IMG/VR virus record: IMGVR_UViG_2703718802_000005
Length of the DNA stretch: 7,660 nucleotides
Source: a virus
Lineage: Duplodnaviria; Heunggongvirae; Uroviricota; Caudoviricetes
Reading direction: 5' to 3' (one strand)
Shown here in pieces: positions 2,160-6,642 of this stretch (within the stretch, counting starts at the first letter, position 1; every line of letters begins with the position of its first letter). Under the pieces are notes generated by a model. The model was not told where the DNA came from. It worked only from the letters and a program-made list of their open reading frames with translations, and made no database searches. The translations under genes were made by a program, and so were the position numbers.

Positions 2160-2686
2160 TTTATGGCCTAAAATTTGAAAACATTAGTATCAATACTGAC
2201 CTCATCAGTCTGAGCATATATTGATAAAGTTTTTATGTTTACACTCAATAAATACCTTGCCAAACAACTAATATCGATGTCTACATTGCCATTCGACATG
2301 CTTACAATTTTTGTCAACAAGAAAGTGAATTTATATCAACGGTAAGAAGTAAACACGAGGACACCAAAACTAAATGTACACACTTTTGTGCTTTGTGTCC
2401 CCTGTGTGTACCCAAATGACAAACTGCAAGGAAATCTAGGCACACACTTATCTAACTTATTGATTTAAATGGTGCGATAATAGGAACAATACACATAGGC
2501 GATAAGCTTTGTTTTTGTTGCCTTTTTTATTGTTCATTTTTTATAGATACCCCCAAAAGTACCCCCATATCTTTTTCCGCCCCTGAAATTTGGTTGTTAT
2601 TCATACAGCATATCAGGCGGTAACGCTCTCCCTTTAACCCACTTATTGTATGATAGTGCTATCCCACAATAAGGAATCAGCCAGCC

Positions 2687-3046
2687 ATGAGAATGACCAG
2701 CCGTAAAAAAGAGATACTCAGTTATTTTGAGCCGGATAACCTAGAATGGGTGACAGGTGAGATTGGTGCGCCGCCGTTCGATGTGTCGGGCGTGGCCTAC
2801 CTGCTTCATGGCATGGTGTCGTTCGATAAGCGCCACCAGCTCGAATCAACCCGGCGCACACTGGAAAGCATGGTTGCTGGTGGACTGCTTGAGCGGGTGA
2901 CAGTGTATGAATCGCGTCAGGTACGGCGCGGCGGTGAGACTAACGCAACGGTCGTGCGCTACGGTTTACCCGGTCACTGCGCTGTTATGCGCGATACTGG
3001 CGGCGCTGATAACGCAATATCAGGCGAATACATGCGGGTCAGTTAA
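2687..3046 (+). CDS. Hypothetical small protein (119 aa), possible winged-helix DNA-binding protein
   Basis: Track ORF; ATG 2687 preceded by AAGGA about 12 nt upstream. Clearly more GC-rich than its flanks by eye. Segment TRRTLESMVAGGLLERVTVYE resembles a recognition helix plus wing (pattern-based guess). Stop TAA at 3044-3046 overlaps the convergent gene by 8 nt. Confidence 0.45.
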   Translation: MRMTSRKKEILSYFEPDNLEWVTGEIGAPPFDVSGVAYLLHGMVSFDKRHQLESTRRTLESMVAGGLLERVTVYESRQVRRGGETNATVVRYGLPGHCAVMRDTGGADNAISGEYMRVS

Positions 3047-3581
3047 GAGCCTGCAATCTGTCGTTAATGTTGTTCAGGTCGTAAACCCGGCGTTCAATAT
3101 CCAGCATCAGGAAATCGTGGATCTCGGCCTGTTCAGGATTATCAGACTCTCTGGCCTGTAAGAGCAATTCATTGTAACCATGCAAACCACCCGAATTTTC
3201 CGCCGGGGTAGTGCCCTTCCCGCGCAAACAGCTAACAGGCTGGATACTGGTATCATGTGTTTGCTTCTCCAGCACAACAAGGCAATCCCACCAGTCGCCA
3301 AAGTCATACGTGTAAACCAGCTTGTCACCCTCATTCTGGAGCGCCGCCCATAGTGGCGTGATTGCCGCGTTACCCATGCTTTCATCCTCACCCCATACGC
3401 GATACTCGCTACCTGGATCACCTTTACGCCCTTTCTCGAACATATACAGGTGTTCGTCATTCCAGCCAAAAGCTAACTGGATCACGGCATGAAGTTTACT
3501 AAAGGGGATTTGCTCTGGAACCAGCACACGCCGCCATATTGGTGGTTTGCTGTCTCGGATGGTTATCTTTATCTGGTACAT
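3039..3581 (-). CDS. pRiA4b ORF-3-like family protein (PF07929-like), 180 aa
   Basis: Track ORF; ATG at 3579-3581. N-terminal IKITIRDSKPPIWRRVLVP and central YTYDFGDWWD match the IWRR / YDFGDxW signature I recall for the plasmid pRiA4b ORF-3-like family. No strong Shine-Dalgarno; lies 43 bp downstream of the toxin-candidate gene on the same strand. Confidence 0.75.
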   Translation of the reverse strand: MYQIKITIRDSKPPIWRRVLVPEQIPFSKLHAVIQLAFGWNDEHLYMFEKGRKGDPGSEYRVWGEDESMGNAAITPLWAALQNEGDKLVYTYDFGDWWDCLVVLEKQTHDTSIQPVSCLRGKGTTPAENSGGLHGYNELLLQARESDNPEQAEIHDFLMLDIERRVYDLNNINDRLQALN

Positions 3582-3624
3582 GCGTCGTGAACCAATAGTG
3601 TACGTTTAGGTGGGTATTTTTCTG

Positions 3625-4059
3625 CTACTGACCAGGATAGAGCTGATGTGCCGGGTCAAGCCAGACAATATGGAATACATTACCGATGAAAAATCCATGT
3701 ATGCGACCATATTCATTGCGCGATATGGCAAATTGATAAGGTGTATAACTCTGAAACTGTTCATTCAAATGCTGAAATCCCTTAGGTTCAGATGTAGTTT
3801 GCCAATCAATCGGATGTGACTTCAACGAACCACCGCGATCGGTGGTGAACTCTCGTTCAGTCATAGTGGAAAGGTCTTTGAGGCGGTCTAACACCTTGCA
3901 AAAATAAACAGGATTCTGAGCGCTGAAAGTAAATTTCTCATGCGCCGCATCGATATACCGAAAAGAAAAGTTGATGGTCGTTATGCCTGAACCTGTTCCC
4001 CCAGGCACTATTTTTGTTTGCGAGGGTGCAATCTTCGACGCCCTGATTCTTTTCGCCAT
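3625..4059 (-). CDS. Toxin-candidate partner of the Panacea-domain antitoxin-like gene; 144 aa, fold not recognised
   Basis: Track ORF; ATG at 4057-4059 lies 2 nt after the TAA stop (4062-4064) of the upstream same-strand gene, a translationally coupled antitoxin-then-toxin layout. No family recognised by eye; notable C-terminal segment GRIHGFFIGNVFHIVWLDPAHQLY and N-terminal Gly-rich PGGTGSG. Confidence 0.6.
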   Translation of the reverse strand: MAKRIRASKIAPSQTKIVPGGTGSGITTINFSFRYIDAAHEKFTFSAQNPVYFCKVLDRLKDLSTMTEREFTTDRGGSLKSHPIDWQTTSEPKGFQHLNEQFQSYTPYQFAISRNEYGRIHGFFIGNVFHIVWLDPAHQLYPGQ

Positions 4060-4061
4060 AT

Positions 4062-4517
4062 TTAGGAAGCCATCGAACGATAAAACTCAGCCGTTACACT
4101 TTTATCAATAACATTCTTGCACGGCGCATCTGATGGAACCCCTTCACGGGCCTCCAGCCACGGCTTTTCTTGGTGCGTCATCTGCTCCAGCTCATAAGCT
4201 GTATAACCGCCAAATACCTCATAGATTTCCTTTAGATGCTTTGACACATTCGCAGGTAACTCAGGGCAGGCAATCTCTTCGTCTATTGAGCGCCATTTGT
4301 AATCTGCAAATCTGGTATACAAATCTCTGGCTACAGGGCCATGTACCCATGCTTCAAACTTGTCAGCAACCAGTTCTTCGCCATCATTCAGCGCCATGAA
4401 CCAAGCATCAGCATAGAACACCATTTTTTGCAGTTTCAGCGGCGTCATAACATCCCCATGCTCTTGAGCAAAGCAAAGCAGGTAATCCGCTACGCTGTTA
4501 AGGGTTGTAACTGCCAT
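4062..4517 (-). CDS. Panacea (DUF4065) domain protein, PanA/SocA-type antitoxin-like, 151 aa
   Basis: Track ORF 4062..4748 in frame; start placed at ATG 4515-4517 because AGGAG sits 8 nt upstream, whereas the ORF-opening ATG at 4748 has no ribosome-binding site. Product contains TPLKLQKMVFYADAWFMAL and FEAWVHGPVARDLYTRF, matching the conserved core I recall for Pfam PF13274 (DUF4065/Panacea; GepA-like 'phage-associated protein'). Confidence 0.8.
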   Translation of the reverse strand: MAVTTLNSVADYLLCFAQEHGDVMTPLKLQKMVFYADAWFMALNDGEELVADKFEAWVHGPVARDLYTRFADYKWRSIDEEIACPELPANVSKHLKEIYEVFGGYTAYELEQMTHQEKPWLEAREGVPSDAPCKNVIDKSVTAEFYRSMAS

Positions 4518-4838
4518 TATCCAATCTCCTGCCGTATGTTTTCGTCTATAACTGTCCACTACCGTTAATAATCGCATATAACCACGGGTATTGCCCATCG
4601 TAAAATGCCATTTAAAGATTCTGCGTGATGGCTCACCATCCACCGCGCAAGATACCCGGTGCGTTTGGCTGATAATCCGCAATTTGGTTGAAACCGTCCT
4701 GGAAACCTCAAGTTTGGAAACCAGCGACTTGCATCGTAGCTTTGCCATTCGGCGGTCATAGTTACTGCTATATCCCTTTATTGGCGAGACCTGCGAGAGG
4801 TTTTGTTGTTCGAATATATAAAGGTGAATAAAGGTAAT

Positions 4839-5024
4839 CTACCTGCGCGGCGCAGGCTTCTTCCACTGGTAGGCGGGTGATCGCATCATTTCGCGAAATT
4901 TGTCACGCCGGGCTATATTGGCATTAACTGAGCGTTCTATCTCCCGTTGATCTGCCGGGGTTAGCTGGTGGCCTTCGTGCTCCAGTTTGGCGGTGGTCAA
5001 TAAAGCTATTTCGCGTGGTGTCAT
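4839..5024 (-). CDS. Small hypothetical protein (61 aa), basic C-terminus
   Basis: Track ORF; GAGGG about 8 nt upstream of the ATG; same strand as the downstream antitoxin/toxin cassette. No family recognised. My manual count of the start codon here differs by 1 nt from the track; track coordinates used. Confidence 0.35.
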   Translation of the reverse strand: MTPREIALLTTAKLEHEGHQLTPADQREIERSVNANIARRDKFREMMRSPAYQWKKPAPRR

Positions 5025-5250
5025 ACGTCATACCCTCTGGAAGGATGAAACACGCCCGGATTAAATTTCATTTTTCGCGGGTATAAAAAAACGATGGGGC
5101 GGGCAGTCCCGGATAGTCAGGGCTGTAGAGATTTGACTACCCCCTCCCCACTGGATTCAGGTTACTGCTATTCCGTTAAGCGCTGCTTACGGGGATAGCT
5201 GCGTTGTGATTTTGACCATTCAGGTCGCCGCTATTTCCTCACCGATTGGG

Positions 5251-5280
5251 TGCTACGCGCGCGCGTACTTGTCCCGAAAT
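5251..5280. repeat. Copy 1 of dispersed ~25-bp repeat with palindromic alternating-CG core
   Basis: TGCTACGCGCGCGCGTACTTGTCCCGAAAT; core TACGCGCGCGCGTA is a perfect palindrome. Same motif recurs at 6643-6670 and 6931-6956. Confidence 0.85.
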
Positions 5281-5321
5281 ACCAGAAACCGCCAGCCAGA
5301 GGATGATTTCCCTCTGGTGGT

Positions 5322-5603
5322 CTACCTTTGCCTCTTGCCGCCATTTAACCGGAAGGCGTTACCGTTCGGTTGCGCTATCCCCATGCGGTGTTGCGTTTCG
5401 GTAACAGCTTTATGCAGGTCGCCAAATTCCTCAACCTTCACGGGCGGGCGCTTCACGTTCTCCAGACACGTTTCACGGCGGCGCTTTATCCATTCCCGAT
5501 CATCGTCCTCGCTGCATAACAGCATGACTTCCATCCATCGTGCGGCAGCTCTCCGGTATAGCCCTTTTGACTCCAGCTCTTCAGCTTTCCTGTCCCTTAT
5601 CAT
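5322..5603 (-). CDS. PerC-family transcriptional activator-like protein (93 aa)
   Basis: Track ORF; GAGG 5 nt upstream of ATG (5601-5603). Segment AEELESKGLYRRAAARWMEVM matches the conserved core I recall for PerC/Pch-family regulators (Pfam PF06069) found on enterobacterial mobile elements. The opposite-strand ORF 5206..5625 is judged spurious. Confidence 0.7.
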   Translation of the reverse strand: MIRDRKAEELESKGLYRRAAARWMEVMLLCSEDDDREWIKRRRETCLENVKRPPVKVEEFGDLHKAVTETQHRMGIAQPNGNAFRLNGGKRQR

Positions 5604-5640
5604 TTCTGCCTCTCAGATTATATAGATAAGCAAAAAGGTG

Positions 5641-5667
5641 TTGGTTCAGTTGGTTCAGTTGGTTCAA
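5641..5667. repeat. Three tandem 9-bp direct repeats TTGGTTCAG (third copy TTGGTTCAA); iteron/operator-like
   Basis: Directly visible at 5641-5649, 5650-5658 and 5659-5667, in the divergent intergenic region between the PerC-like gene (minus) and the RHH-like gene (plus). Confidence 0.85.
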
Positions 5668-5709
5668 TTTGTAAAGATCGTTGTTTTTATTATGTTTTTT
5701 CTAAAATAT

Positions 5710-5862: not shown

Positions 5863-6318
5863 ATGGTCTTTGCAATGAGCAAATCTAATCTGGTCGCGTT
5901 CCGCATCCCATCTGAATTGCAGGATGAGTTTAATCGGTCTGTTCTCGCTTCTGGAGGGGATAAAACCTCCTGGCTTGTTGATGCGATTCGCATGAAGCTG
6001 GGACAGCCGGAAAAGTCTATTGATTCACGAATGCTTGGGCTGGTGGAGCGCATGGAAAAAGCTGCTGCGTCGCTTATTGCCGGAAAGCCGAACATCCCAC
6101 CAAAGCCATATAACGAAACGGCAGTTATAAAGATCATTGCCGATACCATCCGACAGGGATTTGATAATGGGCGTGTGATAGCTGAACGGATCAATGAAGC
6201 AGGCTATCAAACAAAAGCTGGTAAAGCGTGGGATAAAGATATTTACAGCGCGTGGAAGCGTCAGGGAAGCAATGCTGAAAAGTTAAAAGCGGTGATTGAT
6301 TGTAAGGTCAGCGTATAA
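5863..6318 (+). CDS. Hypothetical protein with N-terminal ribbon-helix-helix-like DNA-binding region (151 aa)
   Basis: Track ORF. N-terminus VAFRIPSELQDEFNRSV...KTSWLVDAIRMKL has the strand-helix-helix pattern of CopG/Arc-type RHH domains (pattern-based). Weak Shine-Dalgarno, so start is uncertain between ATG 5863 and ATG 5875. Opposite-strand ORFs 5790..6194 and 6025..6210 are judged spurious. Confidence 0.55.
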   Translation: MVFAMSKSNLVAFRIPSELQDEFNRSVLASGGDKTSWLVDAIRMKLGQPEKSIDSRMLGLVERMEKAAASLIAGKPNIPPKPYNETAVIKIIADTIRQGFDNGRVIAERINEAGYQTKAGKAWDKDIYSAWKRQGSNAEKLKAVIDCKVSV

Positions 6319-6397
6319 ACATGAGTGCCCATTGGAAAGCTGCTTGGGCCAATACCTTTATACACCAGCAGGTGGTGACGATAGGTGAGGATCAGGA

Positions 6398-6619
6398 ATG
6401 AAAGGCAGAACGCCACACATTGAACATCAAGCCAACCACTTCTCGGATGTTCGCAATGAGATGATTGCCATTCGCGGTGATATGCACGGCTTGGAGCGTC
6501 GAATTATTGATAAGATTGATGAAAATAGAGATAAGGCCAGTGAAAATCAAAAGTGGATCATCGGCCTGTTGATTTTATCAATTCTTATCCCGCTACTTAT
6601 CGCATTGGTCACAAAATGA
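6398..6619 (+). CDS. Small tail-anchored membrane protein (73 aa), XhlA/holin-like architecture
   Basis: Track ORF; GAGGA about 6 nt upstream of the ATG. Charged N-terminal region followed by a single C-terminal hydrophobic helix WIIGLLILSILIPLLIALV. Assignment is by architecture only, not sequence family. Confidence 0.55.
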   Translation: MKGRTPHIEHQANHFSDVRNEMIAIRGDMHGLERRIIDKIDENRDKASENQKWIIGLLILSILIPLLIALVTK

Positions 6620-6642
6620 ATATCCAATGTGTATGCTGTCGA

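Follow-up and report, generated by a model that had tools for sequence, protein, structure and literature searches.

The viral record IMGVR_UViG_2703718802_000005 (Caudoviricetes; 7,660 nucleotides [nt], the whole of which is called the window here) is an Escherichia coli-type chromosomal prophage-like island that carries three tightly packed genes on one strand. The first, panA, encodes a Panacea/DUF4065 protein; the second, the panT candidate, encodes a protein of 144 amino acids (aa); and the third belongs to the pRiA4b ORF-3-like family. A preliminary description, made from the sequence, had proposed that all three form a toxin-antitoxin (TA) cassette. Our analysis indicates instead that positions 3584-4836 are probably a self-contained, two-gene PanAT type II TA system with a toxin of predicted RelE fold and that the pRiA4b gene is a bystander. 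The system is of a known kind, an ordinary PanAT member, whereas the toxin family itself is uncharacterized.

Linkage of the Panacea gene and the 144-aa gene across phyla

The preliminary description placed three same-strand genes at 3039-4517, separated by 2 and 43 nt, and both the genes and the spacings were confirmed. The stop codon of panA (TAA) is followed by the letters AT and then by the ATG of the toxin gene, and 43 nt lie between the TAG of the toxin gene and the ATG of the pRiA4b gene. The first gene had been correctly described as carrying the Panacea/DUF4065 core: its product matched PF13274 (SocA_Panacea) over residues 29-120 (E = 8.4e-18; 65.8 bits, cut-off 25.7) and phrog_1281 (E = 8.5e-36), and it matched the NCBIfam model SocA_antitoxin with E = 4e-16, under the cut-off of that model. 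Assignment of the third gene to the pRiA4b ORF-3-like family also held, with a match of its product to PF07929 (PRiA4_ORF3) at E = 5.7e-42 (143.8 bits; gathering threshold 26.6). The identical three-gene annotation is found in RefSeq for 23 E. coli genomes.

A homology search with the 144-aa protein returned 209 relatives, all unnamed, and a scan of one genome per species gave 392 matches, from which 80 loci were fetched. These loci came from Enterobacterales, other Gammaproteobacteria, Cyanobacteria, Desulfobacterota, Bacteroidota, Binatia, Acidobacteriota, and Gemmatimonadota. In 78 of the 80, which span at least six phyla, the gene directly upstream of the 144-aa homolog, on the same strand, encodes a Panacea protein; the remaining two loci are cut by a contig end. 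The distance between the genes ranges from −122 to +12 nt in most loci (modes, −20, −26, and −17), with overlaps of 17 to 26 nt or gaps of 2 to 12 nt being common among the 78 loci, and distances of 136 to 170 nt occur in a few loci because the toxin open reading frame (ORF) is broken there. The same arrangement was present in 14 of 15 IMG/VR viral contigs, and loci inspected individually (Nostoc, Stutzerimonas, E. coli, Proteus, Salmonella, and Enterobacter) showed the same Panacea-toxin pairing. Pairwise identities of PanA and of the toxin were strongly correlated (r = 0.91), indicating codivergence of the two proteins and thereby supporting an interaction between them. The Panacea gene and the 144-aa gene are an obligate two-gene unit across phyla, and the linkage and codivergence agree with the earlier proposal that the first two genes are a Panacea-type TA pair.

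PanAT systems were defined by Kurata et al. (2022; PNAS, PMC8832971), who validated nine pairs as type II TAs. The window pair shares their layout, in which a gene for a standalone Panacea/DUF4065 antitoxin precedes a small, unrelated toxin gene that abuts or overlaps it; it also shares their conservation across phyla and their frequency in prophages. The spacing of panA and the toxin gene lies inside the same-strand distance of ≤100 nt used for PanAT pairs (Kurata et al. 2022). Standalone Panacea proteins neutralize their toxins directly (Ernits et al. 2023; PMC10440598), and by analogy PanA would bind the 144-aa toxin directly.

Among the phage genomes of INPHARED, tblastn with the toxin gave no match. 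The nearest phage Panacea protein (46% identity) is that of Cylindrospermopsis raciborskii virus RM-2018a (L095, 1983-2948), where the Panacea gene is followed by an annotated CRISPR array and no toxin gene; the 144-aa homolog is absent. Other alleles of the pair (L090 to L092, L124, and L127) stand in TA-rich neighborhoods, with Phd/Doc and HipA nearby in Proteus/Providencia, PemK in E. coli, and hok/gef and PIN in Salmonella.

The pRiA4b gene as a resident of the island backbone

The pRiA4b family does not travel with the pair. A phmmer search over all ORFs of the 80 loci, combined with a Pfam scan of the nearest downstream ORF, found PF07929 downstream of the pair in a single locus, that of Atlantibacter (L007), which is the same island. 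PF07929 stands behind the pair in none of the 14 viral loci from IMG/VR contigs. The downstream neighbors elsewhere are heterogeneous in size, strand, and family; in Enterobacter BIGb0383, for example, nap genes lie behind the pair. Eight other alleles of the pair (P0004, P0005, P0006, P0008, P0018, P0027, P0033, and P0098) have no PF07929 gene nearby: four closer ones, at 70 to 81% identity, come from Enterobacter, E. coli, Salmonella, and a metagenome, and the others come from a lambdoid prophage, a prophage of Proteus/Providencia, Stutzerimonas, and Nostoc. Only the exact window allele and the Atlantibacter allele precede a pRiA4b gene.

Comparison with other E. coli islands locates the boundaries of the module. 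The island backbone consists, on the minus strand, of a PerC-family regulator, a 61-aa gene, and the pRiA4b gene, which are followed by a convergent 119-aa gene. In E. coli ET565, the pRiA4b gene comes directly after the 61-aa gene and the pair is absent: in the BLAST alignment, 116 bp of ET565 stand in place of window positions 3584-4836 (1253 bp), a segment that runs from the spacer through the toxin gene and panA to about 320 bp beyond the start of panA. On the right, the indel ends at the pRiA4b ATG; ET565 has an AGGA ribosome-binding site native to this gene, which the window no longer has. Of 5426 complete E. coli genomes, 374 carry the pRiA4b gene, 340 show the empty junction of the 61-aa and pRiA4b genes, and 23 contain the pair (all ≥99.9% identical), so that the pRiA4b gene without the pair is about 15 times commoner than with it (340 versus 23). 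A repeat scan of 2600-5700 found no flanking direct repeats such as would mark transposition.

The lack of co-conservation, the empty junctions, and the 1253-bp indel do not support a three-gene cassette, and the earlier suggestion that the pRiA4b protein is a third component was not borne out. The pRiA4b gene belongs to the island backbone, where it resides as an adjacent bystander outside the module. Its product matched the sequence of PDB entry 2i1s (MM3350) with E = 1.7e-21; this protein of unknown function supplies the one structural-genomics structure for PF07929, a family of no known function that is common as mobile-element cargo. No evidence from the locus ties PF07929 to TA biology, which removes a false lead.

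A three-component system, in which the pRiA4b protein would be a functional PanAT accessory such as a sensor, a chaperone, or a second effector, is very improbable. Such a system would account for the position of the pRiA4b gene 43 nt downstream of the pair in all 23 pair-bearing E. coli genomes, for its presence in 10 of 10 contexts of the exact window toxin allele, and for the Atlantibacter locus, in which a divergent pair stands ahead of a nearly identical pRiA4b gene. The scan found no terminator-like site in the 43-nt spacer, which makes read-through into the pRiA4b gene possible, though unproven; with its ribosome-binding site also replaced, expression of the pRiA4b gene may depend on the module. 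Accessory third genes are occasionally admitted by Kurata et al., who nevertheless found them only in small fractions of each PanAT cluster and concluded that their role is not a general one. The rarity of PF07929 behind the pair, its absence from the 70 to 81% identical alleles, and the retention of the pRiA4b gene without the pair in 340 E. coli genomes all argue against an accessory function. Moreover, a single insertion into a backbone that already had the pRiA4b gene, with later allelic recombination inside that backbone, explains why the pair and this gene are neighbors, and this history fits the data. Known tripartite TAs (TAC chaperone modules, paaR-paaA-parE, and mazEF-mazG) resemble the window locus in having three co-directional genes with short spacers; however, their third gene is co-conserved with the pair, which is not so here (1 of 80 loci). 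In the two-gene reading, the pRiA4b gene would be a pre-existing neighbor that may now be read through from the module promoter and would be no functional component.

The window sequence before the pRiA4b ATG (3582-3600), TTCACGACGC, contains no obvious Shine-Dalgarno motif (the empty island has AGGA; L002, 6565-6600), and loss of the AGGA site may reduce translation of the pRiA4b gene. The 3′ ends of the pRiA4b gene and of the convergent 119-aa gene share 8 nt (3039-3046), and the two genes always occur together at the island edge; in one locus (L122), the pRiA4b gene is replaced, yet a 119-aa gene, recognized by length, is present. Between the window and the Atlantibacter locus (L007, 2909-5599), the flanks, the leader, and the first ~23 panA codons are 95 to 100% identical, whereas identity drops to 52 to 85% over window positions 4448-3655, which cover the remainder of panA and most of the toxin gene. 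At the protein level, identity is 81% for PanA, 69% for the toxin, and 98% for the pRiA4b product. Such mosaic divergence suggests either that alleles were replaced by recombination or that the interacting parts are under diversifying selection.

Predicted fold and candidate active site of the toxin

The preliminary description recognized no fold in the 144-aa protein. The protein indeed has no Pfam match, but the statement regarding its fold is superseded by a structural model that matches the RelE/ParE superfamily. At the sequence level, none of the Pfam families for RelE, ParE, HigB, YafQ, and YoeB was found at E ≤ 5 in any of 50 relatives, and a profile search of the toxin family against PDB sequences gave chance matches to beta-secretase only. 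The AlphaFold2 model (pLDDT 84.7; pTM 0.75) comprises a disordered basic N terminus of about 28 aa and a core of helices followed by a three-stranded sheet; the sheet is antiparallel, and the predicted fold is of the RelE-like alpha/beta type. In a Foldseek search, RelE/ParE-superfamily toxins ranked first, although weakly (best E = 0.048; probability 0.96). By this model, the 144-aa protein has a RelE/ParE-superfamily (BECR) fold.

Residues R59, H82, T89, Q109, R119, H121, D135, H138, and Y141 are invariant in the sequences of the 50 relatives. All 50 also match the C-terminal 60 positions of NCBIfam NF046006 (MAG6450_fam), the best with E = 7e-8 and below the cut-off, and the window toxin scores 30.3 bits against this model (curated cut-off, 40). 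NF046006, the "MAG6450 family protein," is a Mycoplasma conserved hypothetical, and MAG6450 itself has no known function. PADLOC, run on the ten window proteins, matched no defense-system model except for a weak match of the toxin to the C-terminal part of NsnC (E = 0.027). NsnC's C-terminal domain is a YafQ-like BECR RNase that has an H-R-H triad (PMC12065111).

The likeness may extend to a putative active site. RelE, HigB, YoeB, and YafQ mRNA interferases share with the window toxin conserved His/Arg/His/Tyr residues near the C terminus, and His82, Arg119, His121, His138, and Tyr141 of the toxin are similar to the His/Arg/His/Tyr set in the active sites of YafQ-, YoeB-, and HigB-type enzymes. 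We infer that the toxin is a RelE-type RNase that probably cleaves mRNA; it would most likely arrest growth by RNA cleavage, probably of mRNA on the ribosome. Unlike RelE-type toxins, the window protein has no sequence-level similarity to the family, is ~50 residues longer, carries a disordered basic N terminus and an extra N-terminal strand, and is partnered with Panacea rather than with antitoxins of the RelB, HigA, YefM, or DinJ type. RelE/HigB/YoeB-like toxins are included among the 88 PanT toxin clusters of Kurata et al. (T14 and T28). No Pfam model covers the window toxin family, which can be placed only tentatively among the numbered clusters. Taken together, these results provide a predicted fold and a candidate active site (H82, R119, H121, H138, and Y141) for a widespread Panacea-partnered toxin family that is annotated as "hypothetical" in all records examined.

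Several observations weigh against reading 3584-4836 as a self-contained TA system with an RNase toxin. A consensus promoter scan of the minus strand revealed nothing convincing, and the exact window toxin allele has the pRiA4b gene in its company in all 10 contexts examined, so that an interaction with the pRiA4b protein specific to this lineage is conceivable. The shared fold includes ParE gyrase poisons, and RNase activity is therefore not established. Finally, Kurata et al. (2022) scored two members of cluster T1 as "not Toxic" in E. coli, namely the PanT of Salmonella phage vB_SemP_Emek and a protein of an E. coli prophage, and the profile of the window toxin family aligns with the Emek PanT (YP_006560566.1) with an hhalign probability of 94.7% (E = 6e-8). 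Of the alternatives that these points raise, a ParE-like gyrase poison in place of an RNase is quite improbable; it would leave the two-gene TA logic unchanged and give the toxin another target.

The Emek comparison bears on toxicity in both directions. The Emek locus, located by tblastn of PanA, has its PanAT pair at the same relative position as here, immediately behind the ejection-protein genes of a P22-like genome. The Emek PanT and the window family share an FSF.Y motif, a central helix, and a C-terminal F..WLD...LY motif, but the Emek protein has no equivalents of H82, R119, H121, and H138. The absence of these residues may explain the nontoxic relatives in T1, which is the largest PanT cluster. 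The relation to T1 is remote: hhalign aligns the family with the Emek member, whereas tblastn gave no match among phages. In Nostoc carneum, the gaps listed for T1 (10) and T27 (−29) do not agree with the −20 at the locus, where position +30 is an ATT codon. A 61-aa gene downstream of the Emek pair was also considered and is unrelated to the 61-aa gene of the window. The text of PMC8832971 and PMC10440598, together with the part of their supplements that was at hand, contains no mention of WP_032283080, WP_001371753, WP_001678051, pRiA4b, PF07929, or MAG6450.

The nontoxic T1 members, although remotely related, suggest a conserved two-gene module that is not a classical TA, in which the 144-aa protein would be nontoxic alone and would act as an effector upon a phage cue or in another role, with PanA as its sensor or partner and not its antidote. 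This possibility is unlikely, although it agrees with the finding that 8 of 25 PanTs assayed were nontoxic (Kurata et al. 2022) and with the proposal that Panacea is primarily a sensor (Ernits et al. 2023). Against it stand a gene order in which the antitoxin strictly comes first and the genes overlap, as is typical of type II TAs, and a toxin-type fold whose invariant His/Arg/His/Tyr residues are present here and missing from the nontoxic Emek protein; in addition, membership of the window family in T1 is not established. We consider highly doubtful a more elaborate scheme in which the 144-aa family is a phage-carried RelE/BECR-fold RNase that occurs essentially only behind a Panacea gene and, unlike its degenerate, nontoxic T1 relatives, keeps a full His/Arg/His/Tyr site, serving as a phage-triggered abortive-infection (Abi) effector with PanA as the sensor, and in which the pRiA4b protein has been recruited as a modulator in the E. 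coli/Atlantibacter island lineage. A two-gene PanAT system with a RelE-fold toxin remains the reading we favor.

Leader, start codon, and island setting

The longest panA ORF reaches 4748 (228 aa), the frame being open for 77 codons upstream of 4517. An N-terminally extended PanA of this length was rejected: the upstream part lacks codon periodicity, and the relatives (~150 aa) lack the extension. The start at 4517 has further support from a GGAG motif 9 nt ahead of its ATG. At least one gene call nevertheless takes the 228-aa version (L120). Over the 123 nt at 4518-4640, the window aligns without gaps to the Enterobacter BIGb0383 locus (L008) at 85% identity, and this proximal stretch is more conserved than the coding region. 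Substitutions fall 6/4/8 over the codon phases in 4518-4640, versus 26/16/62 in the panA coding region. Gapless conservation without a third-position bias points to a conserved noncoding leader that belongs to the module, and 4518-4640 is probably an operator or leader. PanA shows no evident repressor domain. Promoter, terminator, and repeat scans of 2600-5700 gave nothing above shuffled expectation. As proposed, the module would comprise the conserved noncoding leader, panA, and a translationally coupled toxin gene 2 nt downstream. Coordinates of the module and its neighbors are collected in Table 1.

Table 1. Genes and noncoding segments of the PanAT locus and its surroundings in the window
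Feature	Coordinates	Strand	Length	Remarks
panA	4517..4062	minus	151 aa	Standalone Panacea/DUF4065 antitoxin without an extra N-terminal domain
panT candidate	4059..3625	minus	144 aa	Predicted RelE/ParE-superfamily (BECR) fold
pRiA4b ORF-3-like gene	3581..3039	minus	180 aa	PF07929
Upstream leader/promoter region	4518..4836	minus		Travels with the pair
Spacer between toxin gene and pRiA4b gene	3582..3624	minus	43 nt	Part of the inserted segment
Convergent 119-aa gene	2687..3046		119 aa	No family; 3′ neighbor of the pRiA4b gene
PerC-family regulator	5603..5322	minus		PF06069, E = 1.2e-30
61-aa gene	5024..4839	minus	61 aa	phrog_7271

In related genomes, the flanks of the island hold genes for P22 gp16/gp20-type ejection proteins, a SieA-like protein, AlpA, and a primase, and the 119-aa gene is the final island gene before core genes, at several chromosomal sites. 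The module appears to have been inserted into the string of PerC, 61-aa, pRiA4b, and 119-aa genes at the edge of this P22-related prophage-like island, where it would probably serve in abortive infection, in defense against superinfection, or in stabilization of the element.

Elsewhere in the window, Rfam and tRNA scans detected no RNA genes, and an AT-rich stretch of ~500 nt (2200-2600; GC about 0.35) without a convincing ORF separates a 277-aa ORF (phrog_7522) from the 119-aa gene. A PerC gene also stands ahead of the pair in an Enterobacter element without a pRiA4b gene (L121). In ET565, window positions 6274-6638 are replaced by ~1.4 kb with an "Abi family protein" gene (L002, 8108-9512), which suggests that the island has at least two neighboring slots that exchange defense-type cargo. 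The locus represents a slot for cargo on the edge of a P22-related island, in which TA and Abi genes are swapped.

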